Shown: positions 37,090-62,724 of the stretch, in pieces
Numbering within the stretch: the first letter of the stretch is position 1
Layout: every line of letters starts with the position of its first letter
Assembly: GCA_045545475.1 (NCBI GenBank)
Contig: JAZQAZ010000010.1
Location: forward strand, 64,001-128,000
Length of the DNA: 64,000 bases
Source: Clostridia bacterium
Lineage (GTDB): Bacteria > Bacillota > Clostridia > CAKSNL01 > HGM11501
Direction: 5' to 3'
Program-made: the position numbers and the translations under genes
The notes under the pieces: model-generated
Databases searched by the model: none
Told to the model about the DNA's origin: nothing
The model's input: the letters and a program-made list of their open reading frames with translations, nothing else

Positions 37090-37252
37090 GGCGGAGCAAA
37101 TGCTTTAATATCCGAACTTTCTCCATTAGGACTTCCGGGGTCCCCGAAAAGCCGCTGGCTTTGTGGGGAAAAGGAAGAGCAAGGGAGTGGGCGGATATTT
37201 TCGCCGTATGGCGAAAACGGAGTTAAACGCACTTTGCTCTGACGTGGCGGAG
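37089..37252. repeat. MITE-like insertion at the tRNA 3' end
   Basis: TGGCGGAG duplicated at 37089 and 37245; GAGCAAA/TTTGCTC terminal inverted repeats; internal hairpins. Confidence 0.55.
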
Positions 37253-37302
37253 ACGGAGGGATTCGAACCCTCGTGTCCGGAAGGGCAAACGCATTTCGAG
37301 TG
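37245..37302 (-). pseudogene. 3' half of the disrupted host tRNA-Ser(CGA) (left junction)
   Basis: Minus strand CTCGAAATGCGTTTGCCCTTCCGGACACGAGGGTTCGAATCCCTCCGTCTCCGCCA: anticodon loop, long variable arm, T arm and CCA, with no D arm upstream. Confidence 0.9.
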
Positions 37303-37465
37303 ATTTTGGTCTAAAAAACTCTGTCGAAATTTAAGGTAAGATAACGGAATATAAAAGAGTGTGAAAACCCCTGTATTTACGCGGTTTTCACGCTTTTTTT
37401 GTTTCAAAATACCGAAAAATCAAGGGAAACATTAGAACCCAATTTTGAGCAAAATTTTGCACGTT

Positions 37466-37486
37466 TTTGGGAACTTTTTGGGAACT
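37466..37486. repeat. Tandem TTTGGGAACT repeats (putative integrase arm sites, left)
   Basis: Two copies; a matching pair lies at 62461-62483. Confidence 0.7.
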
Positions 37487-37528
37487 CGCACCTGCTATTA
37501 AATCTAAAAAAGAAGATGGTGGAACTTA

Positions 37529-38032
37529 ATGATAGTTAAATCAAACGACTATGTTTCAAAGGAGCAATTTTACAAATTATGTCACATTTCAAAAAAGACG
37601 GCATACAAGCTTATAAAGTCTGGCAGGATTAAAGCAATAAAACAGAATTGCGGTTCACTTCACTGTTATGAGATACCGATAAGCGAAATTGAACGGCTTG
37701 AAAGTGTAAGGTGTTATCTCAACAAATTGCGGGAAGAAGAAATCAGCAAGGTAAAAGAATACTATTCCGAAAAGCTTCAGAGTTATCCCGATGTTATTAC
37801 TTCGGAGGACGTTCAAGCAATAACAGGATATGTAAAAGAGACTGTCCGTAGATGGATTCAAGGCGGAAAACTCATTGCAATAGTTTATAAAAGTAAATAT
37901 GTCATAGCAAAAAATGATTTTTTGGATTTTGTTACAAGTCCCTCTTATGTGGGGATAACAAGAAAATCGCAGGTGCATCTTTCGGATTTTATTGAACTTG
38001 GAATTGTTGACAAAGGAGGTCAAAGATTATGA
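37529..38032 (+). CDS. Double HTH_17 (excisionase-like) DNA-binding protein
   Basis: ISKKTAYKLIKSGRIKA and YPDVIT...TVRRWIQGGKL units. Confidence 0.8.
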   Translation: MIVKSNDYVSKEQFYKLCHISKKTAYKLIKSGRIKAIKQNCGSLHCYEIPISEIERLESVRCYLNKLREEEISKVKEYYSEKLQSYPDVITSEDVQAITGYVKETVRRWIQGGKLIAIVYKSKYVIAKNDFLDFVTSPSYVGITRKSQVHLSDFIELGIVDKGGQRL

Positions 38033-38373
38033 GAAAAATATTTGTAACACCTAATGTGAAAATCTATATGGAGCAGGCAGACGATAAAACAAGAACGAAA
38101 ATAAATTCTGTGCTTTTGTATTTAACCGATGATAAAAATCCCCTGCGTGAGCCGTATGTCAAGCATATTGCAATGTCAAAGTATAAGGAGTTGTACGAAT
38201 TGCGGGTAAAAGCATCAAAAGAAATGTCAAGGCTCGTCTTTACCCTCTCGGGAGATGATATCGTGCTTCTCTATGCTTTCAAAAAGAAGTGCGGCAGGGA
38301 TAATGAAAAGGCTTTTGAACGGGCTTTTAGGATGAGCAAATTGAGTGAAGAACTTACGGAGGTATGTATATGA
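38029..38373 (+). CDS. RelE/ParE (Gp49-like) toxin family protein
   Basis: EPYVKHI, LYELRV, R.VF and LLYAFKKK pattern. Confidence 0.75.
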   Translation: MRKIFVTPNVKIYMEQADDKTRTKINSVLLYLTDDKNPLREPYVKHIAMSKYKELYELRVKASKEMSRLVFTLSGDDIVLLYAFKKKCGRDNEKAFERAFRMSKLSEELTEVCI

Positions 38374-39419
38374 GGAAATCATCATTTTTAATTGGAATGC
38401 TTTGCGGTAGCTTGTTGTTTAGCGGAGTTACGGTGTTTGCAAATTCAGAGATAGTTGCGAAACTTACGTCACAAATTTTCTTTTGGAATAACGAACAGAT
38501 TGAGCTTGAGGCATACAACATCAACGGAGCGAACTATATAAAGCTTCGTGATGCAGCAGAGTTGTTCGGCGTAAAGGTGGAATATTACGAAGACACGAAT
38601 ACCGTCTATTTGGGAGAACCAAGAAAAGAAAACACTTCAAAAACAATAATTGACGGAAACTCTTACGCAAAGGAAAATTATTCGGAAAAAGCAAATCCCG
38701 AGATATTCAACGAAATTTACACAAGGGATGCGTATAATGCAATCAGGCAGTCTATAGTTGATATTGCAGAAGTAACTAAAAATACGGATGATAACGGTTA
38801 TAATGCGAACTATGAGTATGCTCACTTTGTTGATGTGACATCTAAAGGAACGGAAAAAACGATAGAAGCAATGAAATCTGTTACGGCGACAATGTTCGGG
38901 TATTATAATTTCAGTTTAGGTTATGAGCCGACAATATCGAATTTGTACGAATATCCGGGCTACCGAATTTGTAAAGTGCAGATACATAAACACTTTGAGC
39001 CTGCAAACAACGCAACGGATACCTTCATTGCGGAGATTAAAAACTTGCCCGACACAGAAAAAGTAAAACGGATCGCCGATTACATTTGCGACAGAGTTGT
39101 ATATAAAGATGATAACGTTGCAGGAATCAACAGAGTATTCACTGAAACACCGCCCACAAACGGACTTTGCGGTACTTATGCAAACGCTTTCGTTTATCTG
39201 TGTCAAAGAACAAAAATTCCCTGCATAAGCGTTAAGGATGATGTTCATGCGTGGAACGAGGTCTATATTGACGGGAAGTGGTATACAGCAGATATAAGCT
39301 ATTACGATATGTCGAGAAACGATAAAATATTGTTTCAGGAAACATATATCAGAACAGATATAGATCCGCAAAAAACAAACTTTGCAAAAGAATTGCTTGT
39401 TCCGGGGAGTACGGAATAA
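38370..39419 (+). CDS. Secreted transglutaminase-like domain protein
   Basis: Signal peptide, NYIKLRD stalk motif, GLCGTYA / HAWN / D catalytic triad. Confidence 0.8.
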   Translation: MRKSSFLIGMLCGSLLFSGVTVFANSEIVAKLTSQIFFWNNEQIELEAYNINGANYIKLRDAAELFGVKVEYYEDTNTVYLGEPRKENTSKTIIDGNSYAKENYSEKANPEIFNEIYTRDAYNAIRQSIVDIAEVTKNTDDNGYNANYEYAHFVDVTSKGTEKTIEAMKSVTATMFGYYNFSLGYEPTISNLYEYPGYRICKVQIHKHFEPANNATDTFIAEIKNLPDTEKVKRIADYICDRVVYKDDNVAGINRVFTETPPTNGLCGTYANAFVYLCQRTKIPCISVKDDVHAWNEVYIDGKWYTADISYYDMSRNDKILFQETYIRTDIDPQKTNFAKELLVPGSTE

Positions 39420-39514
39420 TAGGCTGATTGTGTGTAGAAAAGTGTGATGTTTATTACGCAACACAAGAATAATATGTGGTTTTCACGCAACAAACAGCTT
39501 GTATCGTAAAGAAT

Positions 39515-39566
39515 AAAGAGTCAATCATTGGTATGAAGGTGCTTTTGATTGACTCTTTGTTTTTTT
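39515..39566 (+). terminator. Terminator hairpin
   Basis: AAAGAGTCAATCA...TGATTGACTCTTT followed by a T tract. Confidence 0.7.
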
Positions 39567-39592
39567 AAGAAATAAGGAGAGATATGCTTAAG

Positions 39593-39710
39593 AACTTCCA
39601 TTTCGGCATGTCTTGAATTTGTGTTTTAATCACAAAAAGTCGGTGTTTCCTTGTGTTTCACTCATAAACAGTTATTTTCTTGATATTAAGAACTGCCAAA
39701 ATGGCATATC
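39593..39710. repeat. ~118-bp imperfect direct repeat, copy 1
   Basis: AACTTCCATTTCGGCAT.TCTTGAATT ... CTGCCAAAATGGCATATC; colinear with 41828-41945. Confidence 0.8.
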
Positions 39711-39746
39711 TAAAATTAACTATCCAAAAAGGATAGTACATACCAC

Positions 39747-39775
39747 TTGAATTCTTTATTCGTTTGTGGTACAAT
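39747..39775 (+). promoter_or_regulatory. Sigma-A-type promoter for the RNase III gene
   Basis: TTGAAT-17-TACAAT with a TG extension. Confidence 0.65.
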
Positions 39776-39985
39776 ATCAATGTAAGAAGGTGGCACTGAT
39801 TTATAAAAGGTTTGACATAAAATAAGTTTATTTGTCTTGAATTATGTAAGTGATTCTTTACAAATAAGAGTGGTTTATGTAATACAGTTTATTCTTCGGT
39901 GCCCGAATGAGGCGCACGTGATACGTGGGCTTTATCGGGTTATATTTATGCCTTCTTGTAGAAAACTATAAGGAGGTTGTTTTTT

Positions 39986-40972
39986 ATGAACAACGAAACA
40001 TTGTTGGAAATTGCAACACAACTGGAATACGATTTTGACGATATTCGCATTCTGCGTCAAGCATTTACAAGAAAGTCTTATTCTGAGGAACATAACGGAG
40101 AGCATCACAATGAGGTGCTAGAATTTTATGGTGACAAAGCACTAGAATTTGTCGTTATGAAAAAACTGTCCGAGTTTTACGGAAATACAACGCAAAATGG
40201 CAAGTATGCTTCCGAAAAGGCGGAAGGACAACTTACCGAAATGAAAAAGAAACTTATATGTAAGAAGATGCTCGCACATCGAATTGATATGTTTGGTTTT
40301 ACAGAACATATTTTAATGGGTAACGGTGATGTCGGTCAAAAAGTTCAAAATCAGGATTCTGTCAAAGAAGATCTCTTCGAGGCGATAGTAGGTGCAGTGG
40401 CTATTGACAGCGACTGGGATGTGGATGCACTTGAAGATGTCGTTGGCAGAATGCTTGACATAGAGTATTATCTTGAAAAAGGCTTCAACGATGATGAAAA
40501 CTATGTAGATTTAATACAAACATGGTGTCAAAAAAGATACGGTTGGATTCCTGAATATGATTTTGTGGAAATAGAAGAAGATTATGAGTGCTCACTAACG
40601 CTGTCAGACGATTATGATGATTTTATCGGTTGCGGATATTCAAAACGAGAAGCAAGAATGAATGCGGCTCAAAAAGCTTATGAATATTTAGAAGAAAATG
40701 ATGAGCTGCTTCTACCTGTTGACGAGGTAGGTGAACCGGATATTGAACGCGCAATCAATCAATTGCAGGAGCTTTACCAAAAAGGTTATATTGATGAGCC
40801 ATATTATGAGTTTTACGAAGAATACGACAACAACGGTAATCCTATATGGAGATGTGAATGCCATATAAAAGGTGCCGAAGAGTATTATTGGATAAACTCA
40901 TCTTCGAAGAAAAACGGAAAAAAGCGTGTTGCCTACGATATGCTTTGTGATGTCCTTGAGTGGGGTGACTGA
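39986..40972 (+). CDS. Ribonuclease III-domain protein with two C-terminal dsRBD-like domains (island paralogue)
   Basis: AFTRKSY, NEVLEFYGD and DLFEAIVGA signature residues; SKREARMNAA and SKKNGKKRVA dsRBD-like helices. Confidence 0.88.
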   Translation: MNNETLLEIATQLEYDFDDIRILRQAFTRKSYSEEHNGEHHNEVLEFYGDKALEFVVMKKLSEFYGNTTQNGKYASEKAEGQLTEMKKKLICKKMLAHRIDMFGFTEHILMGNGDVGQKVQNQDSVKEDLFEAIVGAVAIDSDWDVDALEDVVGRMLDIEYYLEKGFNDDENYVDLIQTWCQKRYGWIPEYDFVEIEEDYECSLTLSDDYDDFIGCGYSKREARMNAAQKAYEYLEENDELLLPVDEVGEPDIERAINQLQELYQKGYIDEPYYEFYEEYDNNGNPIWRCECHIKGAEEYYWINSSSKKNGKKRVAYDMLCDVLEWGD

Positions 40973-40975
40973 GAT

Positions 40976-44716: not shown

Positions 44717-46144
44717 TTATCCCTCATATTTGATATTTACATATTGAATCAAATCTGTCAGCAATTCGATTACTTTTTTCTGTTGTAAGTCCCATTCTTG
44801 TCTTGCAGACTTTATGTTGATGATTGTTTCATTCTCACGACATTTTTCGTAAAACTTGTCGTCTGCTTGCTTCCACTGTTCATCTGTAACATCTACTTTT
44901 TCTTTTAAACAATCTTTATAAGTTTTAAAAACTTCTTCACCAGAATTATTTAGCGCATGATGAATTATTGAATCGCCTAAATTAATTATACTACATTTAG
45001 TTCCAATGACATCTTGAAGAATATTGTTAGCAAGTTCTGTCATCATTTCATTATTGTTACTTCTTGCTTTTAAATACTTGCCAATCTTTTCAAACAACTT
45101 ATCAACTTCTTGGATTAAAATTTGTGGAGTTTCTAAGTAACGCGTATCTGTCTTTATCCTTCCCCAAACTGCATACTGAGGGAAATTTTGAGATACTCTG
45201 TCTAATGTTTCAAAAAATATCATACTGGGGTATGGATTTGTTGCGAGAACATCGTTTTCTATTTCGCACAATTCATCATACAAAGGTTTGTAGATTAGAT
45301 TTTTTCTTTTAATATGAGTTTGTGCTTTGAGTTGTTTCTTGTTAACATAAATACTGCCTATAAGGGTAAACATACCACCAATAATGGCACCTAATAGTGT
45401 TCCAATAACAGCGATAGTTTCTCCCTTCCAGCTACTGATTTTTTCGATGAAATTGAACTTGCAGAACAAAAATATAATTGCGGCAGTAGCGATCAAGGTA
45501 AAGCATGCGATTATCCATCTTCCATACTTTGCCCAAAACAATTGAACTTTTGGCCTTTTCAAATGACTCACACCTTTCATTATTTTTTGGATCCATTTCC
45601 GAATGTAATTTATAAATCTCTCTTTTAAGGATGGCTTTTTATAGTTTATTTTTTCTATTTCCGTCTGATAGTCTATAATTATCTTTCGTTCCGTTTTCAT
45701 CATCTCATATAAATACATATACGGATGAATTAATGTGGCTGGGAAATTTTCTTCATTTAATGCTCGATTGTAATAATCTTCTCCGTATTTTTCAAGAAGA
45801 TCGTGAATTTCTTTTAATTGATTTTTGTTGCCACGAATCAAATTTAAATTTGACGAAACACCTGCTCGGCAATCGTTTTGCAAAGAACATTGAATATAGT
45901 CTAAAAACAACTCTGCAAAACGAGGATAATATTCAAAATCATTTTTTTCAGTTAGTGAAATCAGTTCTTTTCTAAGTTCAAGTTCAATTTGAAGAAAAGC
46001 TTCTACTGAACCGTTTGAAAATCCTTCTTTAACAAGTAAAGAAGTTTGATGCAGATCTCGCATATCCTTTAGAGTAAACGATTCCGGCATTTTTACATTA
46101 TCAAAACTTCTTTCTTGCAAAGGGGTAGCCACGCAATAGTACAT
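44717..46144 (-). CDS. Hypothetical two-TM protein (start uncertain)
   Basis: Long ORF with two central hydrophobic helices; possible internal RBS+TTG near 45562. Confidence 0.55.
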   Translation of the reverse strand: MYYCVATPLQERSFDNVKMPESFTLKDMRDLHQTSLLVKEGFSNGSVEAFLQIELELRKELISLTEKNDFEYYPRFAELFLDYIQCSLQNDCRAGVSSNLNLIRGNKNQLKEIHDLLEKYGEDYYNRALNEENFPATLIHPYMYLYEMMKTERKIIIDYQTEIEKINYKKPSLKERFINYIRKWIQKIMKGVSHLKRPKVQLFWAKYGRWIIACFTLIATAAIIFLFCKFNFIEKISSWKGETIAVIGTLLGAIIGGMFTLIGSIYVNKKQLKAQTHIKRKNLIYKPLYDELCEIENDVLATNPYPSMIFFETLDRVSQNFPQYAVWGRIKTDTRYLETPQILIQEVDKLFEKIGKYLKARSNNNEMMTELANNILQDVIGTKCSIINLGDSIIHHALNNSGEEVFKTYKDCLKEKVDVTDEQWKQADDKFYEKCRENETIINIKSARQEWDLQQKKVIELLTDLIQYVNIKYEG

Positions 46145-47966
46145 CGTTATATGTTCTCAAAATACGACCGCGTCTTTGAACAAATTCTCTGTAATCATCA
46201 TTGCTGGAAAGTATAAGGGCACTCTTGATTGAAGGAATGTTGATACCTTCGTCAAGACATCGAATAGCCGCCAAAGCCGATATCTCGCCTTTATTAAAAG
46301 CATCGACTAATTGCATTCTGTCATCCATATTTTCCTGAGCTGTAAATTGACTGGATTTATATCCATGTGCTGAAAGAACTCGTTTTACAGATTGGATGTG
46401 TCGTAATTCTTCACCCGTGTTGTTATCAAACAATCGACCATCACCGCAGTAGACTACAAAATGATCCTTTTCTTGAATCTGAGATACTATATAATCTATT
46501 TTCTCTTGTTTTTCGTCCGCCATAGAAATAACACGCAGTCTATTTCTCAAAGACTTCACCAGCTGGTCTGGGTTTATACATACACTGTTTTTAAAACATG
46601 ACAGTATTTTATGAGTGTGATATTGAAATTTGTTTTCATCCTCTTCGCTTGCGTGTACATATATAGGGTGATAGTAATATGGAACAAGGAATTTGCGTTC
46701 AAGAGCTTCTTCAATTGGTAAGCTAAATACTTGTCCACCGAAGAATTCCATTAACTCCTTTCCTCGTTGAGCCGATGTACCGCTGAATGGAGTGGCACTT
46801 AATCCAAGCATATATTTGAATTGTGTATGCATATCTTCAGAACGGTCAGTAAAGCGATGTGCTTCGTCTACAATTAAGAGTTTATCTTCAGTTGATTTTC
46901 CCAAAGTGTTTGTAAACCTTGGCATTTTGAAAGATGCGATTGTTGAAATAATAATTGTTTGTGCTTTTGAATCATATTTCTTTCTGATAATTTCTTGGGA
47001 CATTTGTTGTTCCCACTTTGGATTTTCAGAAGAAACCAATATAATCTTGGCATCTTCGAATGCTTTTTCGACATCTTCTGCCCATTGTTTTACTAAATGC
47101 TTATATGGTGCACATATAACAATCATAGCAGGGTGCGTTTTAAGAAGTTCTTTTGCAGAATAAATTGCGGTCCATGTTTTACCTGTACCGGTAGCCATAA
47201 CATAAAAACCATGATAATCGTTTTCTACCCACGCTGCAATTGCTTGTTTCTGATAATCTCTTAATTCTATAGGAGATTTCGCAGAAACAGATGTAGCACG
47301 TGTCTCTATCATCTGTAAAATGTTAGATTGGGCACTTTCTTTGTAATCATAAACTTTTACAAATTTATTAGTGCCATTCCAAAGAGATTCAAATTCTTCT
47401 TGCTCATCGGCAATATTAGCACATTCTTCAGGAATCCAGTTTTTTACAACACGTATTTTTTCATAGTTGTTTTGATACCCACTTAAAGTAGAGTTTGCAG
47501 AACCGTAGAAAACCACAACATTCCCATCAAAATCCTCAAGAATACCAAGCTTATCATGATATATTCCGAGAGTATCAGTTACAGCAATCTTGATATCAAG
47601 AATTCCACGTGCAATTAAGGTAGCAAGTAATTGTAATTTGGCATCATCAAATACTTCTATTTCTTTCATAAAATCACGAGTAAAGGATGACTTTATAACC
47701 TTCTCTCTTGCTTCATATCCGGTAGTGATTGCCTGAACATCTTCTTCGGTAAGATTCGGACTTGCAATTAATTGTATCTTGCCATTGTTTCTCGCCAATG
47801 CAACTATTCCATCCACAATGGGCTGTAAAACCGACGAGGAGAAAAAACCTACACTTCGTTTATAATTTTTGGTACATTTTAAAACAGGAGTCAAAAAAGC
47901 TTTGGCTATATTTTCTTGACCCACACTTACATAACTTCGTTTAATATCTAATTCCCGGTAATTCAT
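46101..47966 (-). CDS. PLD-like + SF2 DEAH (ResIII-type) helicase resembling Dnd-associated restriction helicases; possibly C-terminally truncated
   Basis: YHDK...D...GSAN PLD-like motif, MATGTGKT, DEAH, LSATP, QRRGRILR. Confidence 0.82.
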   Translation of the reverse strand: MNYRELDIKRSYVSVGQENIAKAFLTPVLKCTKNYKRSVGFFSSSVLQPIVDGIVALARNNGKIQLIASPNLTEEDVQAITTGYEAREKVIKSSFTRDFMKEIEVFDDAKLQLLATLIARGILDIKIAVTDTLGIYHDKLGILEDFDGNVVVFYGSANSTLSGYQNNYEKIRVVKNWIPEECANIADEQEEFESLWNGTNKFVKVYDYKESAQSNILQMIETRATSVSAKSPIELRDYQKQAIAAWVENDYHGFYVMATGTGKTWTAIYSAKELLKTHPAMIVICAPYKHLVKQWAEDVEKAFEDAKIILVSSENPKWEQQMSQEIIRKKYDSKAQTIIISTIASFKMPRFTNTLGKSTEDKLLIVDEAHRFTDRSEDMHTQFKYMLGLSATPFSGTSAQRGKELMEFFGGQVFSLPIEEALERKFLVPYYYHPIYVHASEEDENKFQYHTHKILSCFKNSVCINPDQLVKSLRNRLRVISMADEKQEKIDYIVSQIQEKDHFVVYCGDGRLFDNNTGEELRHIQSVKRVLSAHGYKSSQFTAQENMDDRMQLVDAFNKGEISALAAIRCLDEGINIPSIKSALILSSNDDYREFVQRRGRILRTYNDVLLRGYPFARKKF

Positions 47967-50784: not shown

Positions 50785-52566
50785 TTATTTACAAAGATCT
50801 ATATATGCTTTACGTACAATTTGAGCCATTAATTGACGGCGCTTTTCAAGAAATTCAAGATATTCCATATTTTCAAAGTTTTCAGGCAAAGCGTTTTGTT
50901 CGCACGCTTTTTTATAACCTTCATCTCCGAGTTTTTGACGATAAACATTTACATACTCAGCAGGAGGCTTGTCAGAAATATCAATATTGGTGGCATAGTC
51001 CAAGTATGTAAAGTTAGCAAGTTGATTACGATCACGGTCATTAGTATAACCAATCTGTTCCAAATGGTGTTTCGGGAATATGTGATGCTTATCAATAGCA
51101 TTTTTCGTTCCGCTTGATCCGATAATAAAATATTTAGAAACAGGGGTATTACTGAACAACATCGGGTTGTTCAAAACGATTTGTGCAGCTATATAACCGT
51201 TCCAAGCGGGAGAAATTGCGGCAGCACTGTTAAGTTCACTGGGAAGGGTGAGATTGAAGTAATCGTCAGTAAATCTTGTAGAAATAACTCTGTCTATATA
51301 TGCAATAAATTCTTCAGCAGAATTAACATCTCTTAAATCAGCAAACTGATTTTCAACTTCACTTTCTGTAGAACCGGTGTAAAAATATGTAATGGTGCTC
51401 ATAAAGAACCATTTGCTAATACATTTTCTTAAGTTGATTGCGTCAAGTTTGTAATCATATTTAGCTATAAGATACAGCACATAAGAGAAAACAACAGCGT
51501 TAGAAGACGCAATAAGTTTGTTGCTAATATAGCCGGCTTCTCCGACAATGTTGATAAATCCGTGCCAATTATTAAGATTCATAACTTTGTCCAAAGCATC
51601 CTTAAATTTGTCGAGGTTAGCTTGACGTTCTTCTGCAGAAAATTTTCCTGTTTTAAGATTTTTACCACGCAACAGCATATACGCATAACGTAATCTTGCA
51701 CGTCTGAAACCAACACCTACCGCCATTCGAATCAAATGGGAGGGTTCAACTGCTAACAGCGTATTATAAGAAGTATTTTCTGCCGGAATTCTTGATTTTT
51801 CGGAAAACTCGTTTATTCTATCACTCGTTTCATTTTCGTAAACAGAAATCAATGTTTGAATAAAGTTGTTTTCTGTTAATTTCTGACCTCCGGAGTTTAC
51901 TCTTACAAAAATATCAGCAACAGCTTCTTCGTCAGCATTATATTGAATTTCCAGAGTTGGAAGTGAAAAATCTGAAAGATTGAGCAATGCATTTATGTTG
52001 TTTTCTACAGTAATTTCTTCGTCTTCGGTCAGTTCTGGAAGATTCTTTTTCGCTCTACCTTCATTAGCTTCTTTAATGAATTTTCGGCGAAGCGAAATAA
52101 TGTTGTTTTCTTCTTTTGCAAGAAATACCTCACTTATTCGAGAAATCCATTCTGTATCTCGCTCATATGCTGGAGTCCACACTGCAAATTCTCGTGTTAA
52201 AGGGTTGAACGATATTTTTATTTCTTTGTCCGCAAAATTTTTATCTTTGACAACAACCCCATACATTGCAGCAACAAGAGCGGTCAACCGTTGTTGGCCA
52301 TCTATAACTAATTCTTTAGGTTCGTCATGAATTTTTTCGTTTTTACCGATAACATTTTTCTTTGTTTCATAATCAGCCGGCGATTCCCAAATCATAACAT
52401 ATCCGATAGGGTAACCCTTCATCATAGAATCAAAAAGATCTCTTACTTTATTATCTGCCCACACAAAAGGTCTTTGTAAGTCCGGCAAACCTATTCTGCC
52501 TATTCGTACTCCTCTGACCAAGTCATCAACTTTACTAGGTATATTTTTGAATAATTCCGCACCCAT
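50785..52566 (-). CDS. DUF262 (GmrSD-like) protein with a C-terminal HNH-like motif
   Basis: PDLQRPFVW, IDGQQRLT, IFVRVNSGG; HHIFP...ANF..N. Confidence 0.85.
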   Translation of the reverse strand: MGAELFKNIPSKVDDLVRGVRIGRIGLPDLQRPFVWADNKVRDLFDSMMKGYPIGYVMIWESPADYETKKNVIGKNEKIHDEPKELVIDGQQRLTALVAAMYGVVVKDKNFADKEIKISFNPLTREFAVWTPAYERDTEWISRISEVFLAKEENNIISLRRKFIKEANEGRAKKNLPELTEDEEITVENNINALLNLSDFSLPTLEIQYNADEEAVADIFVRVNSGGQKLTENNFIQTLISVYENETSDRINEFSEKSRIPAENTSYNTLLAVEPSHLIRMAVGVGFRRARLRYAYMLLRGKNLKTGKFSAEERQANLDKFKDALDKVMNLNNWHGFINIVGEAGYISNKLIASSNAVVFSYVLYLIAKYDYKLDAINLRKCISKWFFMSTITYFYTGSTESEVENQFADLRDVNSAEEFIAYIDRVISTRFTDDYFNLTLPSELNSAAAISPAWNGYIAAQIVLNNPMLFSNTPVSKYFIIGSSGTKNAIDKHHIFPKHHLEQIGYTNDRDRNQLANFTYLDYATNIDISDKPPAEYVNVYRQKLGDEGYKKACEQNALPENFENMEYLEFLEKRRQLMAQIVRKAYIDLCK

Positions 52567-53249: not shown

Positions 53250-54071
53250 TTACTCTCTAAAATAGTCAGAATTGATTTTATATATATTAAATGTCTTGAC
53301 ACTTTCAACGCCAATTCCATATTTAACCATATAATCAGCTAATAACTCGCCATCAATAAGTTTCACGCTTTTTTGCTGTTGCTGAGTTCCAAAAGTCAAA
53401 GCTTCTTTTGTGTATGATGAGGTTGTAATAAATACGCCCTTCTGAATATGACCCATTGCACCAATGAATGCTTGCAATTCTTTTCTGCCGACTTTATTTG
53501 TGCTTGAATTACGCTTAGCTTGTATGTAAATGAGGTCTAATCCTAATTTATCTTCGCTGATAATACCATCAATTCCATTGTCATGCGAACCGCCAGTCAC
53601 AATTCCTGAATTTTTGTCATACCCGTAACCCATTTTTAACAACAATTCCACAACCAGTTATTCGAAAAAATCGGGGTGATTTGACATAATGTTATCCAGC
53701 AACTGTTGTTTTATCTGATGTAGATGCTCATCCAGAGCATTAACAATCTTTTCTTCTGGTAAAAAGTCTGTATTATCATCGTCTATATTTGTAGATTGAT
53801 TTGTGGTTTTCTTAAATTTGTCGCTGTCGCTTACAATAAACTTAAGCTTTTTCCCATCTTTTCCCGAAATCGCAAAGTGTTTAACTGGATATGCAGTAGG
53901 AAACTCAAGACCAATACAATGACGTCTGATTTCACCGTTGACAACACCAACGGGATTTTTTGCACCAAACTTATATAGATTTTTATCAATTATCCTCTGA
54001 TAAATATCAGCAGAAGATAAACCATCGGGCTCATCTTTTAAAACTTCTTTAATTGCTTCGATTATTGTCAT
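53250..54071 (-). pseudogene. mrr: Mrr-like restriction endonuclease interrupted by an in-frame TAA
   Basis: Both ORFs share a frame: PDFFE*LVVELLLKMGYG; D.GIDG, YIQAKR and FITTS Mrr_cat motifs; N-terminal winged-HTH-like region. Confidence 0.85.
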
Positions 54072-54186: not shown

Positions 54187-55269
54187 TCAAACCAAAACTT
54201 CCCACTTACCGTAGCGTTTACCACTTTCACGGTGGATATAGTTTTTATTCTGCAGCGATTTCATAATTCGCTTAATTGTTGCAATAGATTTTCCGGTTAC
54301 TTCAACGAGCTCTTGCTGTTTCATCGTCGGGTTCTTTGCAACCAATTCTAAAACGGCAAGTTCTTCTAAAGTACAGTCTAAAGTATCAAATTGATACTTT
54401 GGAACTTTAGAATTGATACTTTGGGAAGCATTTACATCCACAAAATCAACGTGCATATAGCGGTTCTTCAGCTCGTGGTTCGTGCCGAGCAAAAGATTTT
54501 CGAAAAACAATTCCAGAAATTTTGTGGTGGAATGAATCCCTTTTTGCAAATCGTTATAGTTAGCACGAACGAGTGCGTTGCGGAAATACCAAGAGTTTTC
54601 ACGGAACGCATCGTTATTGACACGGAAACCGAAGGTTTTCATATATTTAATCATAAACACGGCGGTGGCTCTTGTATTGCCCTCGCCGAAGGGATGAATC
54701 TGCCAAATGTCCGATGCAAATTTAGCAAGGTGCTTTACCGATGCTTCAACCGACAGCCCCTCATATGAGAACTGCTTTTCGGTGGCAAAATCATAATCCA
54801 AGGTATCTTTTATGCTGTTGAAATCAGCATAGATAACCGTTTCGCCATTCAGTACCCATTCCTTTTTGGAAATGTTATACTGACGAATCTTACCGGCGTG
54901 GTCAAATACACCCTCAAACAATCTGCGGTGAATGGTAATCCACTCGGCAGGAGAAAACTGAAACGCTTTTTCGCCTAAAAGCTTGGTTATTCTTGCAGAA
55001 ACAATATCCGCTTCTTTGGTGTTATCTTCAGCTTCGGTGCGGGTACTTCTCTGCTCATAATAGCTGTAAATACGCTTTTGAGCTTCATCTATGGTGATTT
55101 TACCCTCGATGTGATCCTTTGCAGTATCAAGCAAATATTCAGACGTGTTGAGTCCGTCAACCGCCTGCAAACCAATAGCAGTTTGCCAAGCTTCACTTTT
55201 TTCGGCTCTTTCAGGTTCGCCTTGCTTTATATATTCTTCAAGTTCAAATTGCCAATTCTTATCGGGCAT
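54187..55269 (-). CDS. Fic family protein with N-terminal VbhA-like and C-terminal wHTH domains
   Basis: HPFGEGNTR; GLQAVDGL; C-terminal HTH. Confidence 0.88.
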   Translation of the reverse strand: MPDKNWQFELEEYIKQGEPERAEKSEAWQTAIGLQAVDGLNTSEYLLDTAKDHIEGKITIDEAQKRIYSYYEQRSTRTEAEDNTKEADIVSARITKLLGEKAFQFSPAEWITIHRRLFEGVFDHAGKIRQYNISKKEWVLNGETVIYADFNSIKDTLDYDFATEKQFSYEGLSVEASVKHLAKFASDIWQIHPFGEGNTRATAVFMIKYMKTFGFRVNNDAFRENSWYFRNALVRANYNDLQKGIHSTTKFLELFFENLLLGTNHELKNRYMHVDFVDVNASQSINSKVPKYQFDTLDCTLEELAVLELVAKNPTMKQQELVEVTGKSIATIKRIMKSLQNKNYIHRESGKRYGKWEVLV

Positions 55270-55298
55270 ATTTGCACCTCATTTCGCTATCATATCTA

Positions 55299-56201
55299 TT
55301 ATTCATTATCCAAAACCCTAAAATAATCATCATATCTCTCGCTGACATACTCAGCAACGAGATTTATCATCGGTTCAGGATCGTTATCTCTGTAGAATGA
55401 ATCAAATGCGTTATAATACCGCTTTCGGTCGGCAAATTTTACGTTGATTGCCGGATAACCGTGTCTTATAAGCTCAAGATTCATAATCAAGCGGCCTGTT
55501 CTTCCGTTACCGTCAACAAAGGGGTGAATGCCCTCGAATTCAAGATGGAACAACGCAATACGCTCAATGGTGCTCATTTCTGCCTTGCGTTCTTCGTTTT
55601 TTAAGAGCAGTTCAGTCATTTTGGGTTCAATCAAATAGGGCTGCACCGGCTCTGTAAAAGCTCCCATAATACGCACGGGAATGCGGCGATACACACCCTT
55701 ATCCTCTGGCTGATTCATCAACACAAGGGAATGAATGGCTTTTATGGCTGACTCGTTTAACGGCACATCCTTAGTAGCAATGTCCGTAACATACAGAAAA
55801 GCATCACGGTGTCCGACTGCTTCAAGGTGGTCTTTCAGCGGCTTTTGATCGACAGTCATTCCTTCAAGAACCATTGCGGTTTCCTTCAAGGTAAGCGTGT
55901 TTCCTTCGATTGCGTTTGAGTTATAAGTATACTCTATCATAAACTCTTGGCGGAGACGGTTTAACTCACCCTGTGTAAGAGGACGCATTGCATTAAGACG
56001 TTCTTTTTTGTATTCTATTTCTGCAATTATATTAGTCTTTGACAATCTGCCGTCCATGGGCTTAACTGCCGTTTCGGGAATCATATAGAGTTTTCCCTTG
56101 CGTATAACGCCCTCCACCTTGCCTTCGGCACACAATGTACGCACACGGCGAGGTGAAATTCCCCATTTTTCAGCAGCTTTTGATACCTTAATATATTCCA
56201 T
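55299..56201 (-). CDS. Fic family protein with an N-terminal HTH
   Basis: SNAIEGN inhibitory motif; HPFVDGNGRTGR. Confidence 0.92.
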   Translation of the reverse strand: MEYIKVSKAAEKWGISPRRVRTLCAEGKVEGVIRKGKLYMIPETAVKPMDGRLSKTNIIAEIEYKKERLNAMRPLTQGELNRLRQEFMIEYTYNSNAIEGNTLTLKETAMVLEGMTVDQKPLKDHLEAVGHRDAFLYVTDIATKDVPLNESAIKAIHSLVLMNQPEDKGVYRRIPVRIMGAFTEPVQPYLIEPKMTELLLKNEERKAEMSTIERIALFHLEFEGIHPFVDGNGRTGRLIMNLELIRHGYPAINVKFADRKRYYNAFDSFYRDNDPEPMINLVAEYVSERYDDYFRVLDNE

Positions 56202-56731
56202 TAGAGTTGCCTCCTCAGTTAATACAATACTACAAAATACATTATACACCATTTTGGGAATATTGTCAAGGTTGACTGAAAATGTTTACAACTGTTTTGT
56301 TCCCCAAATTGAATTTAAGGGAAGAATGTTTGTACAAGTGAATTGATTTTTGTATTTTGACACTGTTGTAGCATTCATGATAATTGCTACAGCGTAGCAC
56401 CAAATATAATGAAGAAAAGCCTTGAATGTAATAACTTTCAGGGCATTTCTTATGGTCTAGAGGTGGAGCTATGAAGTGAAAATTTAATATCAAAATTACA
56501 ACTTTGTGATAATTTATAATGTCGTACAGCTCCACCTCTGAGCCCTTGCAATTACTGGCTTTAACGGTGTTTGCCGAGGTATGCATCGCGCCTGCTCTTA
56601 GAGGTGGAGCGATTGACTTTTTTGATGGTAATATTCTTGAATCTATATTGAATTTGTAAATTCTATTTGCCAAAAACGAAAAACTATTGATTTTGACAAG
56701 TAAAATTAGAGCACCAAAACAGTGGCTCTGA

Positions 56732-57541
<810 letters not shown>

Positions 57542-57606: not shown

Positions 57607-57634
57607 ACCTATATGGAGGTGAGAACATTCGGGA

Positions 57635-58920: not shown

Positions 58921-59253
58921 TGTAAAGATGGTAAGCAGTTAAAATTGTAAGCAGTTGCGGTAACTTTAGTTACTGATAGTTTTTTCAGGAGATTAACCAT
59001 AAGTTCTTGTGAACCTTTACAAGTCGTAAAGAGTACACCAAAACTTTTATTACAGGAGATATTGTCTGAATACTCATTGAGTGTTCGGCAAGTAAACGGT
59101 ATGACTGAAGAGCGATTATGCTCATTTGCAGTCTGTGGAGTGGTAAAGCTACGGGATAACTATGTCCTGAAGCTCTATCTAAAAATTAAATATTACGGAA
59201 ACAAAAAGAATGTAGATTTAGCCTTAAATGGCTTATTTCTGCATTCTTTTTTT
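58921..59253 (+). ncRNA. Candidate RNA unit 4 (paralogue of unit 3), ending in a terminator
   Basis: TG-extended TAAAAT, tandem motif, hairpins, terminator AAAAGAATGTAGA...TCTGCATTCTTTTTTT. Confidence 0.5.
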
Positions 59254-59292
59254 ATCTAAATATCGAATGGAAACCAAAACTTTTGAAGAGTT

Positions 59293-59737
59293 CTATCGGC
59301 ACATCCAGCCCTGCTCGGCAGGAATGTGTACGGACAAAATTTTGTGGAACAACGAAAATGAAATGTGCAAGCTTTTAACGGTTTTCCTTGCACAGCAAAG
59401 TCGGGCGAAAAAGAGCCTCACTTTGTTACTTAAAATCCAGGATGTGAGCAGACATCCGGACACAGTAGCGGCTGTGAAAACACATTCATATGTCACCGCT
59501 TATGGCATATTTCAGCATCGGCATTTTATGCACCTGAGTTTAGCAGGTTGATGCTACCGCCGGATTTTTAAGTCCAAATAACAAAATAGCGGTAATATTA
59601 CTAACCTGGCAGTTAGCTTCATACTAAAGGGAGACAGAGATTAAAAAAGCACACGAAAGTGCCGTAAATATGCTGTTTTCCATTAAGTCAAACAAGGAAA
59701 TACAGAGGTAACAGATACAAAAAGCTCAGTGCCATAG
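59293..59737 (+). ncRNA. Candidate large structured RNA or ssDNA element upstream of a tyrosine recombinase
   Basis: Four nested long-range helices plus at least seven local hairpins identified by eye. Confidence 0.5.
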
Positions 59738-59766
59738 CTATGCCCTTGCGAAAGAAAGGGATTAAA

Positions 59767-60633
59767 ATGAAAACTGCAATATACAAGAATTTAGAAGTTC
59801 AGTACAACAAGTTGTTCCGTCACCTGAAAGTTGGCAGTTTCAAAACGAGAGAGCGTTACGGCAAGGCGTTCAAACGCTTTATGGTATTTCTGGCAAAAGA
59901 GTACCGATTGCAAAAGCTTTGCAACATTTCCGAAAAGCATATACTTGCATACGTTTCGTATATGCAAAAGAAAGGTCTGTCAGCTTCGACCATCAAGACC
60001 GAGCTTGCCGCCATTCGTTTCTTCCACGACAATATGCCGTACACGAGAAGCACATTGCCGAGCAATGAGGACTTAGACCTCAAAAAGCGTACCTTTGGTG
60101 GTGCGGACAGAACCTGGACTTCTCCGGAATTTAACCATATGCTCATTGCCGCAATTGATAACAAGGATTATCAGGCGATTCTGTGCCTTGCGAGATACGC
60201 TGGTCTTCGCTTGGAGGAATGCTTCCGCATCGACACCAATGATGCAAAAAACGCCCTTGATACAGGCAATCTGCTTGTCAAGGGCAAGGGTGGACTTTGG
60301 AGATATGTACCTATCAATGAGTCTATCAGAATTACATTCCGTGATATGTTAAAGATAACTCCCATTGGAGAAAAACTGTTTGTGCGACCTTACGACAAGA
60401 CGCATCTTGCAATGAAAAGACTGCAATGCTTTATTGCGTATCACAGAAAAAGATTTACTGAAAACACAATTACTTTCCACGGACTTCGACACACCTTTGC
60501 ACATGAGCAGTACAACAAGTTCATTGAACAAGGTTACTCTGACTTTATGGCTCGTAAAAAGGTATCGGAGCTACTCGGGCATCACCGTGATGATGTAACG
60601 AGAATTTATTTGTCGGGCGGTGATGATGTATGA
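59767..60633 (+). CDS. Tyrosine recombinase-family protein (second; no arm-binding domain)
   Basis: N-terminal SAM-like domain, AGLRLEE, KGKGG, HGLRH, LGH and terminal Y. Confidence 0.9.
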   Translation: MKTAIYKNLEVQYNKLFRHLKVGSFKTRERYGKAFKRFMVFLAKEYRLQKLCNISEKHILAYVSYMQKKGLSASTIKTELAAIRFFHDNMPYTRSTLPSNEDLDLKKRTFGGADRTWTSPEFNHMLIAAIDNKDYQAILCLARYAGLRLEECFRIDTNDAKNALDTGNLLVKGKGGLWRYVPINESIRITFRDMLKITPIGEKLFVRPYDKTHLAMKRLQCFIAYHRKRFTENTITFHGLRHTFAHEQYNKFIEQGYSDFMARKKVSELLGHHRDDVTRIYLSGGDDV

Positions 60634-60839
60634 CCAAAAAGAAAAATCTTTATACAAAAATGCTCAAAGATTACCCCGATGTATTAAACGTAAATCAAAT
60701 GTGCAAGGCTTTGGGAGGAATCAGCACAAAGACGGGCTACAAGCTTCTTAAAGAAAAGAAGATTGAAAGCATAAAGGTCGGTCGGGAATATAAGATAGCC
60801 AAAATAAATTTGATAGATTTCATCACAAATAACGGCTAA
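60630..60839 (+). CDS. HTH_17 excisionase-like protein
   Basis: YPDVL.V..M...GIS.KT.YKLL; directly upstream of the integrase. Confidence 0.85.
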   Translation: MTKKKNLYTKMLKDYPDVLNVNQMCKALGGISTKTGYKLLKEKKIESIKVGREYKIAKINLIDFITNNG

Positions 60840-60936
60840 AATCTTTACAAAAGCACCTGCTTTTGGTATAATAATTAAATAATAGCAGGTGCTTTACTTC
60901 CCGAAAGGAGGATTTATTTAAAGGAGGTAAAACACT

Positions 60937-62196
60937 ATGAAAAGAAAAGATATAAATGTCTATATAAGAGACAAAAAAGGTTATTACTATGCTGTTATAG
61001 TTTATAAAAATGCACAAGGCAAGCGAAAAGAAAAGTGGTTTCCGACTAAATTGCAGATTCGCGGTAACAAGAAAAAAGCAGAAGCGATTGCAGATCAGAT
61101 CCTTGAAGAATTTGAAATTCCTGCCGAGGATTTGTGTTTGAAAGAGAAGAGTACAAAGCTTGGCAAGAATTGTATTGCAAATGCTACGCTTGACGATTTG
61201 ACACAATCTCAGGTTGCAAATTTGTTGTTCTCGGATTACATCATAAAGTATTTGCCGCTGACGAGAAAAAGGCGAAGAAAGATTGAAGACACTACATATT
61301 CAGGCTATGAGGCAAACGTAAAAAGCGTTGTCGCTCCTTATTTTGCAAAGAAAAAGATTAAGCTTAAGGATCTGACGGCAAAAGACATTCAGGACTTTTA
61401 CGACAAGCAACTTGAACGTGTAAAACCAAACTCGGTTATTCGATACCACGCAATCATAAGACTTTCTCTGTGCCACGCAAGAAAGATGCGATACATCAAG
61501 GAAAATCCCATTGAAGAGGTGGAAAAGCCCGAGAAGAATCAGTTTATCGGCAAATTCTATACGGCTGAAGAACTTACCAAACTTATAGAGTTAGCCAAAG
61601 GCACAAAGCTTGAAATTCCCGTTATTATGGGCGGTTTTTACGGACTTCGCAGAAGTGAGGTTGTGGGATTGAGATGGTCGGCAATAGACTTTGAGAACAA
61701 CATATTTTACATCAATCACACGGTAACAACTCCGCAAATTGACGGTGTAACCAAAATTGTTGCAAAGGACAGAGCAAAGACTAAATCAAGTTTGAGAGCC
61801 TTACCACTTGGCAAAGATGTTAAAGAAATACTTCTTTGCAAAAAGCAACAGCAGGAAGAGTACCGCAAGAAGTTCAAAAGCTCTTATAACAAGAAATGGC
61901 TTGATTATGTGATGGTTGATGAATTAGGTGATTTAATTACACCCGATTACATTACCGGAGCATTCAAAAGCTTTTTGGCAAAACATGAGCTTCGTGAGAT
62001 ACGCTTCCACGATCTTCGTCACACCTGTGCTTCGTTGCTTCTTAACAAAGGCAAGCACGAGGGAATAACGCTTAAAGACATTCAGGTATGGCTTGGACAC
62101 AGCGACTTTTCGACTACTGCGAATACATATTCACATCTTGATGCAACGTCAAAAGGATTTTCGCTAAGTGCGTTAGAGAAGGCTATAACATTCTAA
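60937..62196 (+). CDS. Site-specific tyrosine integrase of the island
   Basis: N-terminal arm-binding-like region, GLRRSE, FHDLRH, LGHS...TYSH; next to the right junction. Confidence 0.95.
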   Translation: MKRKDINVYIRDKKGYYYAVIVYKNAQGKRKEKWFPTKLQIRGNKKKAEAIADQILEEFEIPAEDLCLKEKSTKLGKNCIANATLDDLTQSQVANLLFSDYIIKYLPLTRKRRRKIEDTTYSGYEANVKSVVAPYFAKKKIKLKDLTAKDIQDFYDKQLERVKPNSVIRYHAIIRLSLCHARKMRYIKENPIEEVEKPEKNQFIGKFYTAEELTKLIELAKGTKLEIPVIMGGFYGLRRSEVVGLRWSAIDFENNIFYINHTVTTPQIDGVTKIVAKDRAKTKSSLRALPLGKDVKEILLCKKQQQEEYRKKFKSSYNKKWLDYVMVDELGDLITPDYITGAFKSFLAKHELREIRFHDLRHTCASLLLNKGKHEGITLKDIQVWLGHSDFSTTANTYSHLDATSKGFSLSALEKAITF

Positions 62197-62297
62197 AATG
62201 AAAAAAGTAACCTATACTTTTTCACTATTCACTATTACTTATTACTTCCGCCAAAATCGACAGTAAGAGAGTAGTGAAAAGTGAAGAGGTAAAAAGT

Positions 62298-62335
62298 AAA
62301 ATCGACAGGGCTCTCTGTCGAACCCTGTCGATTTT
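62298..62335. terminator. Hairpin/terminator immediately 3' of the island tRNA
   Basis: AAAATCGACAGGG...CCCTGTCGATTTT. Confidence 0.75.
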
Positions 62336-62426
62336 GGCGGAGAAGGTGGGATTCGAACCCACGTGCCGGAATTACCGACAAACTGATTTCGAGTCAGCCC
62401 CGTTATGACCGCTTCGATACTTCTCC
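62335..62426 (-). tRNA. tRNA-Ser(CGA), complete, encoded inside the island
   Basis: Acceptor GGAGAAG/CTTCTCC, anticodon arm GCTGA-CTCGAAA-TCAGT, long variable arm, GGTTCGAATCC, G-CCA end. Confidence 0.95.
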
Positions 62427-62460
62427 ATATATGTTTAACAGTTATCCAAAAAAGCAAATC

Positions 62461-62483
62461 TTTGGGAACTTTCTTTGGGAACT
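62461..62483. repeat. Tandem TTTGGGAACT repeats (putative integrase arm sites, right)
   Basis: Two copies matching 37466-37486. Confidence 0.7.
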
Positions 62484-62576
62484 GCTAAAATCTTAAATAT
62501 TCAGTTTTTCAAAAAATCAAGCTATACAGCGGATTTAGGGCACTTTTTGAAGAGGATATTTCCGAAAAGCTTACCT

Positions 62577-62724
62577 CATTTCGAGTGTGCTCCGTTATGT
62601 CCTTTTGCGGTGCCCGGGAAAATTTCACACCTTGTGTTTATTTTTCCGACCGCGGCAGCTCCTTATTGCTCGCTGAATCTGCCACAGGCAGTGCTCGCAA
62701 ACGTCACCACTTCGATACGTATAT
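62577..62724 (-). pseudogene. 5' half of the disrupted host tRNA-Ser(CGA), itself interrupted by a 106-bp insert
   Basis: Minus strand ACGTATCGAAGTGGT[insert 62600-62705]CATAACGGAGCACACTCGAAATG; its ACG pairs with the acceptor CGT of the 37245 half. Confidence 0.8.

Follow-up and report, generated by a model that had tools for sequence, protein, structure and literature searches.

Why does a Clostridia genome with a single intact gene for tRNA-Ser(CGA) also carry, about 25 kb apart, pieces of what appears to have been another? The question is raised by a stretch of 64 kb (positions 64,001 to 128,000 of contig JAZQAZ010000010.1, assembly GCA_045545475.1), which is called the window here. In the window an island of 25.3 kb, spanning 37303-62587, is bounded by two copies of an 11-bp core, CATTTCGAGTG. 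The answer favored here, with a probability of roughly 0.85, is that this is a non-phage, non-conjugative defense island that splits the host gene for tRNA-Ser(CGA) and supplies a whole replacement. The assembly is a draft of 50 contigs, 95% complete, in which ARAGORN finds 35 tRNA genes.

The ends of the island are sharply defined. The core occurs exactly twice in the window, compared with 0.02 copies expected by chance, and two copies were reached in none of 100 shuffles. On the tRNA strand the core is the anticodon loop CUCGAAA with its flanking bases. The right boundary is fixed by two other loci, L026 and L042, which share with the window the tRNA, the P arm and the core as far as ...CATTTCGAGT and then continue into different host sequence; the three are alike up to the T and diverge from the next base. 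Because the common sequence on the right ends one base past the loop, strand exchange probably takes place within the anticodon loop. The word TGGGAAC is found six times on the plus strand of the 64 kb, and four of these copies make up two tandem pairs that flank the predicted attP. The pairs are putative arm-type sites around a lambda-like attP. The repeats of the P arm are kept in L026 and L042, variant repeat words are found in other loci, and paired repeats resembling the P' arm occur at the equivalent place in related loci. The G+C content gives no signature of an island, being 0.35-0.38 inside and 0.37-0.41 outside. Both junctions lie well inside a single contig of 171 kb.

The DNA just outside the left end preserves the 3' half of a tRNA-Ser(CGA), from the anticodon loop to the CCA end. 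The left flank together with this half-tRNA was used as a query against 40 relatives. The half is 98% identical to the corresponding part of the tRNA of genome G004, 95% to that of G007, 93% to that of G009 and 90% to that of G014, and in these four of the nine loci scanned ARAGORN calls an uninterrupted tRNA-Ser(cga) at the matching site. It differs from the G004 sequence by one substitution, which breaks the stem of the variable arm, and Rfam returns partial tRNA-like matches only. The intact tRNAs of the relatives have the acceptor strand GGAGACG and the anticodon stem GCGCA/UGCGU, and thus fit the 3' half in the window as its expected partner.

The right side is less well preserved. The first 12 nt after the core, which correspond to the 3' side of the D-stem and the 5' side of the anticodon stem, continue the host tRNA and join in register, together with the 3' half, with the orthologue of the relatives. 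Two substitutions are found within these 12 nt, one of which breaks a pair of the anticodon stem. A structured insert of 107 nt is positioned next, where the D-loop should be, and is followed by tRNA-like positions 5-19 (ACGTATCGAAGTGG...). Other bases stand in the window in place of GGAG, the first four of the acceptor; G002, G003 and G004 keep GGAGACG. In G003 and G004 the insert-bearing piece is a separate partial copy, in which tRNA positions 1-19 are followed by the insert, CATAACGGGGCGC and a hairpin; it is located ~50 nt upstream of the true tRNA or of the split 5' half. The form present in the window, as well as in G002 and L042, looks like the product of a deletion between two CATAACGGGGCGC repeats. 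When the two flanks of the window are joined in silico, no tRNA gene results. The state of the right side is read here as the decay of dead halves after the split.

The missing function appears to be supplied from within. The sole tRNA gene called by ARAGORN in the 64-kb window is a complete tRNA-Ser(cga) close to the right end of the island, and no second tRNA-Ser(CGA) was found by this program in the whole assembly, at its 95% completeness. The island tRNA has the acceptor strand GGAGAAG, a long variable arm, a discriminator G and an encoded CCA. Its anticodon stem is GCUGA/UCAGU, compared to GCGCA/UGCGU in the host type, and 77 of 93 aligned columns are identical between the two tRNAs, whereas the anticodon loop is identical throughout. 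The gene is convergent with that of the integrase and co-oriented with the destroyed host gene. The same or a similar tRNA accompanies the integrases of L026 (99% identical to that of the window) and L042 (96% over the part available) and precedes other host sequences there, namely different 5' halves. Since these two loci share the tRNA block and then differ, the tRNA is seen to move together with the island. At neither the attL nor the attR junction is a tRNA called by ARAGORN, and in an attP rebuilt from both ends the overlap with the tRNA consists of the core alone.

The stretch 62213-62515, which contains the island tRNA and its terminator, has a summed word depth of 70 to ~10,000 in four gut metagenome runs, compared with ~2-9 in the host flank, and is therefore common to many organisms or elements in those samples.

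Most of this anatomy had been proposed in an original prediction made from the letters alone. A core confined to the anticodon loop, a host 3' half outside the left end, the failure of both junctions to rebuild a tRNA, and a full tRNA of the same anticodon 150 bp inside the right end, with GGAGAAG in place of GGAGACG, are all borne out; the 150 bp agree with the distance from the 5' end of the island tRNA to the core. One Ser(CGA) gene was found in the assembly, and this gene is inside the island. None of the uninterrupted relatives carries the tRNA of 62335-62426 at the matching site: G004, G007, G009 and G014 have the GGAGACG type, although none of them is syntenic. Two claims stand in part. 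A 5' half had been placed outside the right end, but only 62588-62599 continues the host tRNA, and the 107-nt insert and the loss of GGAG make the rest something other than a plain half. Similarly, the joining of the halves into the orthologous tRNA holds for the 3' half and these 12 nt; the remainder of the 5' half is decayed. On both points that the prediction had named as able to overturn it, the outcome is in its favor.

The arrangement recurs with related integrases, which gives a positive answer to the question, raised in the original prediction, whether a full tRNA-Ser regularly comes after homologous integrases. Relatives of the window integrase are encoded at 17 loci of the species collection. 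In nine of them a complete tRNA-Ser(cga) is located just after int on the opposite strand. In eight of the nine, the next elements are a spacer of ~150 nt with its paired repeats, another anticodon-loop core and then a 5' half that belongs to a different tRNA-Ser; in the ninth the contig ends at the second core. The remaining eight loci comprise two that are cut by contig ends, one with a truncated tRNA, two with arms, core and 5' half without a tRNA, two with nothing, and one in which a 45% identical integrase is positioned beside the 3' half of a tRNA-Leu(CAA).

Homologues of the integrase at E<=1e-40 are present in 65 of 400 sampled Clostridia genomes, from which a class-wide sample of 29 further loci was taken; the two samples belong to the same species collection and may share genomes, so that their counts are not additive. 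A whole tRNA-Ser(CGA) followed by a second core was found in 8 of the 29, and a whole tRNA-Leu(CAA), a second core and a Leu 5' half in two. In three loci only the 3' half of a tRNA-Ser, broken at the anticodon loop, is present beside int. Four have arms, core and 5' half but no tRNA (L048, L054, L056 and L057). The tRNA of L048 was apparently lost by a deletion between the two copies of an arm repeat that flank the tRNA in near-identical relatives. Seven loci look classical (at Lys-CTT, Leu-CAA, Leu-TAA and Phe), three are cut by contig ends and two show nothing.

A quick tree, in which the internal stops of three rows were read as X and L032 is on a very long branch, groups a classical tRNA-Lys member with the whole-tRNA Ser members (SH-aLRT 95). 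Near-identical integrases, with branch lengths of 0-0.009, are found in different host families (L045-L048 and L050; L034, L036, L056 and L057), which points to a recent transfer of the islands across families of the class. The phage collection contains no close relative of the integrase, the best of 77 records being 47% identical. The top matches there are unverified virome scaffolds; of two that were examined, one has the layout of the island and one lacks the tRNA.

The whole-tRNA layout is seen also at tRNA-Leu(CAA), in L066 and L072, whose integrases are more distant (46-49% identical). Here int is followed by a complete tRNA-Leu(CAA) and repeats of the GGAGGGA type, after which come another anticodon-loop core and the 5' half of a foreign Leu tRNA. 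Their relatives L060, L061 and L068 have the classical look at the same tRNA-Leu(CAA).

For two small islands a single contig spans both junctions. One of them, L091, has a length of 5.4 kb and contains an HTH_17 gene, the genes of a DUF2971 protein and a 595-aa protein, and int. L092 (G402:C186), of ~6.7 kb, contains an HTH_17 gene, two reverse transcriptase genes (RVT_1) and int. Each has its own distinct tRNA-Ser(CGA). The outer halves of L091 pair without a mismatch in both the acceptor stem and the anticodon stem, and when the island is removed in silico ARAGORN calls a tRNA-Ser(cga) in both L091 and L092. As judged from these ends, the two islands are clean versions of the arrangement that is decayed in the window. 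The two RVT_1 genes of L092 are possibly a defense-associated reverse transcriptase pair.

Some islands are stacked. In L027, L029, L038 and L051 the first 5' half is followed by a second spacer, core and 5' half, and the same stack is present in L077 and in the virome scaffold MT836101. The first 5' half of L029 matches that of the tRNA carried by the L040 island without a difference over 44 nt, and the spacer after it agrees with that of L040 in 140 of 205 aligned columns, with both TGGGAA repeats present. In L044 and L055 the island's own tRNA is reduced to the 3' half beside int, after which comes the left end of another type of island. Read most simply, these sequences suggest that an island arriving later integrates into the tRNA that came with an earlier one. 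Among the loci examined, no nested pair had its four junctions together on one contig; the far island ends of L027, L046 and L047 are not on the same contigs, and the 13-kb MT836101 has no 3' halves.

The alternative that survives best accepts the split, but not the compensation. In this case Ser(CGA) would be dispensable and the carried tRNA would be a landing pad, a tRNA resistant to anticodon nucleases, or hitch-hiking DNA. This is unlikely, although enough speaks for it to leave the dependence of the host on the island tRNA doubtful. The genome has a tRNA-Ser(UGA), which may read UCG by wobble. Islands without a tRNA persist in 4 of the 29 class-wide loci, and while two of their four genomes have another Ser(CGA) gene, none was found by the query used in the other two (G063 and G258, both 98% complete). 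Furthermore, island tRNAs are used as targets by later islands, and the idea that carried tRNAs counter tRNA-cleaving defenses is raised in the accessible text of a study of actinobacteriophages (Guerrero-Bustamante & Hatfull 2024, mBio, PMC10865867). Nevertheless, the carried anticodon is always that of the destroyed gene, Ser(CGA) where Ser(CGA) is the target and Leu(CAA) where it is Leu(CAA), and the carried tRNA is always co-oriented with the target and always beside attP. A matching anticodon, orientation and position are what compensation predicts, and are not required by other uses. In its anticodon loop the island tRNA does not differ from that of the host, and there is thus no sign of nuclease escape.

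Classical integration is far less probable. Under this explanation 62335-62426 would be the rebuilt host gene, 37245-37302 its displaced 3' end, and 62577-62724 an unrelated older scar. An integrase beside the 3' end of a complete tRNA with a tRNA 3' half at the far end is indeed how such sites usually look, the two 3' halves are 80% similar, and seven integrases of the class sample have arm repeats between int and the tRNA without a second core. However, the acceptor and anticodon stems of 62335-62426 pair internally, GGAGAAG being matched by CTTCTCC and mismatched by the CGTCTCC of the displaced half. The sequence that is repeated exactly, the 11-bp core, lies 150 bp past the tRNA and is no part of it; in L026 and L042 the tRNA, the P arm and the core have moved as one block with the integrase, and different sequence follows the core. 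A tRNA-restoring island is rejected also on account of its attP, which has no tRNA segment, and of the junctions, neither of which regenerates the gene. Least probable of all is an assembly artefact, in which the island was misjoined across shared tRNA sequence in a metagenome bin: the draft has 50 contigs, the tRNA region is common to many organisms, its word depth reaching hundreds to thousands in gut metagenome runs compared with ~6-8 in the flank, and public contigs break 18-21 nt left of the core, but both junctions lie deep in one 171-kb contig, the same two-junction architecture is present in independent assemblies (L091, L092, L026, L042 and MT836101), and the junctions have the precise core-sharing expected of site-specific recombination.

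Several further observations weigh against a split followed by replacement. All the data are assemblies, mostly metagenome-assembled genomes. There is no syntenic empty site among the relatives: the intact genes of G004, G007, G009 and G014 are in other genomic contexts, and in the flank-sharing G002 and G003 other islands, whose ends differ, are inserted at this anticodon loop. The 5' half is too decayed to prove its former partnership with the 3' half. In a comparison of 60900-63900 with four contig-only DNA metagenome runs, right-flank contigs of three runs (X1, X2 and X4) align from 62578 and have 18-21 unaligned letters to the left; these strains may have either an empty site or another island there. 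The fused insert-bearing form was seen in three metagenome runs as well, in related strains, and the decay could therefore predate the island.

The consensus scan gave no sigma-70-like promoter between the core and the island tRNA on the tRNA strand. The former promoter of the host tRNA scores highest among the promoter-like sites of the region and is directed across the remnant and the P arm toward the island tRNA, and a TG-n-TAAA..AT stretch is found ahead of the island tRNAs in loci inspected by eye. The island tRNA could be expressed from its own promoter, by read-through from the host promoter, or by both. Finally, a locus of G007 (L156, G007:C21:1-3300) has a 73% identical integrase and its own tRNA-Ser(CGA), followed by the core and then by non-tRNA DNA with a sugar-transferase-like gene. 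The host tRNA-Ser(CGA) of G007 is intact on another contig, and this genome has two Ser(CGA) genes. A tRNA is therefore not the sole integration site, and the end of L156 can be taken as a secondary site or a rearrangement.

With these reservations, splitting and replacement of the host gene can be pictured as follows. A lambda-type integrase and a small excisionase (Xis) would recombine an attP whose overlap with the target is the anticodon loop plus a base or two on each side. Because such an attP carries no tRNA half, integration would leave the host gene as two dead pieces. The island would compensate with its own complete tRNA-Ser(CGA), positioned between int and the P arm in the orientation of the target and provided with its own terminator; this tRNA would have to be expressed and charged. 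After integration the host halves would drift, and the 5' half may have recombined with the upstream insert-bearing partial copy and lost its first bases. With the 5' half decayed, excision would no longer restore a tRNA, and the island copy would be the only one left.

The features of the window are collected in Table 1. The island encodes, as predicted from its domains, its own tyrosine integrase, and the product of the small gene directly upstream is probably Xis, judging by size and position. The original prediction of a non-phage island is supported by the gene content. None of 22 island proteins matches a PHROG head, tail, connector or lysis category, and no relaxase, type IV secretion system (T4SS) or coupling, capsid or terminase family of Pfam is found among 28 open reading frames (ORFs) at E<=0.001. 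A temperate phage was rejected on the structural, lysis, capsid and terminase results, and an integrative conjugative element on the relaxase, T4SS and coupling results, although the island may be mobilized in trans. The cargo, as far as these matches identify it, is a cluster of known anti-phage defense genes, with further gene-level PADLOC matches to PDC-S72 and PDC-M42B.

Table 1. Features of the island and its borders, in window coordinates
Feature	Positions	Strand	Basis
Displaced host tRNA-Ser(CGA) 3' half, anticodon loop to CCA	37245-37302	-	98% identical to intact G004 tRNA
attL core copy CATTTCGAGTG	37292-37302		Exact-match count in window
P' arm, two TGGGAAC repeats, putative arm-type integrase sites	37468-37485	+	166 bp inside left end
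HTH_17 protein gene region	37529-38032	+	Pfam PF12728
Cargo, mostly anti-phage defense	38029-59551		Pfam, PADLOC, PHROGs
Gp49-like/HTH pair, transglutaminase-like, RNase III-like, Macro domain, YpsA-SLOG	within 38029-59551		Pfam
PbeA-like PLD-helicase	46101-47966	-	PADLOC PbeA, 622 bits
GmrSD/HEC-05	50785-52566		PADLOC HEC-05
Mrr type IV restriction endonuclease (REase)	53250-53651		PADLOC mREase_IV
Two Fic proteins	54187-56252		Pfam; PADLOC SoFic/PDC-S04
Serine invertase	56795-57541		Pfam
Second, XerC-like tyrosine recombinase	59740-60633	+	Pfam PF00589 and SAM-like N-terminal domains
Putative excisionase (Xis) of 69 aa with HTH_17, immediately upstream of int	60630-60839	+	Pfam PF12728
Tyrosine integrase (int), 419 aa	60937-62196	+	PF00589, 72 bits; PF14659; PHROG 1 integrase, 202 bits
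Terminator-like hairpin and T run, directly after island tRNA	62298-62335	-	Consensus scan: 16 pairs, 7 G-C
Complete tRNA-Ser(CGA) of the island	62335-62426	-	ARAGORN; Rfam tRNA, 53 bits
P arm, two TGGGAAC repeats, putative arm-type sites	62463-62482	+	Between island tRNA and core
attR core copy CATTTCGAGTG	62577-62587		Exact-match count; boundary from L026/L042
Host tRNA 5'-half remnant (D-stem 3' side, anticodon-stem 5' side)	62588-62599	-	Compared with G004, G007, G009
107-nt structured insert at D-loop position	62600-62706	-	Covariance model R1, 106 bits
tRNA-like positions 5-19	62707-62720	-	Compared with G002, G003, G004
Former host tRNA promoter, TTGACA-17-TATTAT with TG	62756-62784	-	Top promoter-like site of region, 11/12

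Two regions of the island deserve a further remark. In 44717-50683 on the minus strand the neighbors of the PbeA-like PLD-helicase are a protein of 475 aa, which belongs to no known family, and one of 906 aa with stretches resembling the C-terminal domain (CTD) of the RNA polymerase alpha subunit and region 4 of sigma-70. Directly upstream of the XerC-like gene, at 59487-59606 on the plus strand, there is a sub-threshold match to the xerDC RNA motif (42 bits compared with a gathering threshold of 72.5, E 0.001).

The principle of replacing a whole tRNA gene is already published. It was known, as the original prediction had stated, from actinobacteriophages (Fionnbharth, LeBron, Gaia and others), where it is called tRNA-dependent lysogeny (PMC10865867). 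According to the accessible text of that paper, these phages have a tyrosine integrase, an attB in a tRNA gene, a core of 8-17 bp and no rebuilt tRNA, and they encode an isotype-matched tRNA, which was proven experimentally to be required for lysogeny. Classical and tRNA-carrying members are found within one integrase family. The authors suggest that the phenomenon may occur outside the actinobacteriophages and cite prophage Lj965.

The island shows four of the six features listed for tRNA-dependent lysogeny, and it is not a phage. As far as the accessible text allows a comparison, the two systems have in common a tyrosine integrase, flanking arm-type repeats, an attB that is commonly in the anticodon loop and a short core, which is 11 bp here. 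Classical and tRNA-carrying members are likewise mixed in one integrase family, according to the quick tree in the present case, and in one actinobacteriophage case, at tRNA-Leu(CAA), the tRNA is downstream of int. The differences are that the present element is not a phage, that its hosts are gut and rumen Clostridia and not Actinobacteria, and that its target is tRNA-Ser(CGA). Furthermore, every member seen here has the tRNA as a part of its attP-int module, and the islands stack by splitting each other's tRNAs. The requirement for the tRNA is proven for the actinobacteriophages, whereas for the island the indirect signs are mixed, the island copy being the only Ser(CGA) gene found in the assembly and islands without a tRNA existing elsewhere.

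Other known systems share parts of the arrangement, to the extent that their accessible descriptions permit a comparison. Classical islands of the Islander type (PMC4383910) also have the integrase beside the tRNA, a displaced fragment at the far end and a crossover in a tRNA loop. In contrast to the present island, where neither junction does so and a separate whole gene is supplied, the split gene is restored there by island sequence. Prophage Lj965 of Lactobacillus johnsonii resides in a member of the Firmicutes, does not rebuild a tRNA at its junctions and encodes a cognate tRNA (as given in PMC10865867); unlike the island, it is a prophage. The tyrosine integrase of phage mv4 of Lactobacillus delbrueckii (bioRxiv 10.1101/2023.11.06.565760) acts at a Firmicute tRNA-Ser, as here, but mv4 is a phage, and the accessible text of its report mentions no carried whole tRNA. 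A search by title and abstract returned nothing relevant on island-borne replacement tRNAs, with subscription journals and supplements outside its reach, and the matches listed for 'tRNA-dependent lysogeny' concern, by title, phages or unrelated topics.

The insert at 62600-62706 belongs to a family of structured elements of ~105 nt. BLAST detects the family in 17 of 399 genomes of the class; with a covariance model built from 13 copies, it was detected in 9 of 14 genomes at the level of the order and in 31 of 150 at that of the class. A genome may contain up to seven copies. There are three in the present one, the others being at G000:C4:20388-20492 and G000:C40:59161-59220, and further copies are at loci L074-L146. 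When 58 distinct copies were aligned, 93.3% of cells pair compared with 67.6% in shuffles, 27 of 28 pairs have changes on both sides, and the covariation score is 0.51 compared with 0.14 in shuffles and 0.07-0.10 for slid partners, in an alignment that was fitted to the model and thus favors it. Rfam 15 has no match for the insert.

An intact tRNA is found within 300 nt (<=300 nt) of the insert in 26 of 38 loci, always on the same strand. The copies sit in the loops of partial or degenerate duplicates of the neighboring tRNA: in the D-loop of Ser-CGA, Leu-GAG and Pro-GGG, in the anticodon loop of Pro-UGG and in the T-loop of Glu-CUC. Others are beside 3' parts of fMet, Trp, Asn and Ser-GCU. 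The recurrence of orthologous placements across the genus suggests that the insert is an inherited, functional RNA rather than a recent repeat, and the family is possibly an undescribed class of structured RNA tied to tRNA genes. An RNA of the YrlA type was considered, and the lack of a Ro60/TROVE gene in the genome speaks against it. A literature search by title and abstract gave nothing relevant on tRNA-embedded structured RNAs in Clostridia. A Gut-1 RNA motif lies downstream of tRNA-associated copies of the insert in L088 (1696-1770, 58.8 bits, above threshold) and L087 (1763-1831, 41.4 bits, below threshold).

Another repeat is associated with tRNA ends. On the minus strand, at 37097-37252, a unit of ~156 nt directly follows the CCA end of the host tRNA half. 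Eight nucleotides of the tRNA end, which read CTCCGCCA on the tRNA strand, are duplicated so as to flank the unit, and the unit is missing at the orthologous place in G002. Relatives of the unit trail other tRNA ends; in G011 two tandem units follow a tRNA-Ala and each ends in the 3' end of that tRNA. Outside the window, at G000:C40:58850-59440, three successive units follow a tRNA-Ser(GCU). Each consists of an inverted piece of the T-arm, a variable insert, the last ~23 nt of the tRNA (from the T-loop to CCA) and a terminator, and in one of them the variable insert is half of the structured D-loop element.

What is new at this locus is thus not the principle but its setting: a non-phage, Clostridial element with a fixed cassette of int, tRNA and attP, two target tRNAs, and serial takeover. 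A mechanism published in 2024 for actinobacteriophages would extend beyond phage biology to shuttles of defense genes in gut and rumen Clostridia. Programs that find islands by a regenerated tRNA and a displaced fragment will misplace the ends of islands of this kind, and the number of tRNA genes in such genomes would partly be a measure of mobile DNA. Because its target requirement appears to be an anticodon loop only, the compact cassette is a candidate tool for integration in Clostridia.

A wider interpretation, for which the chances are about even, is that the Ser(CGA) gene in these Clostridia is in effect the property of mobile elements, each incoming island replacing the previous copy. 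Since recognition would extend to little beyond the universal anticodon loop, an island could integrate into whatever gene a host has, or into the copy left by the island before it. The incoming island would kill the resident copy and install its own, leading to nested stacks and to progressive loss of the chromosomal gene, as may have happened here. Such islands could not be shed without loss of the tRNA, and their host range would span families, in line with the near-identical integrases in different families. If this is true, they would be a clean natural case of a mobile element that is hard to lose because it has replaced a housekeeping gene.

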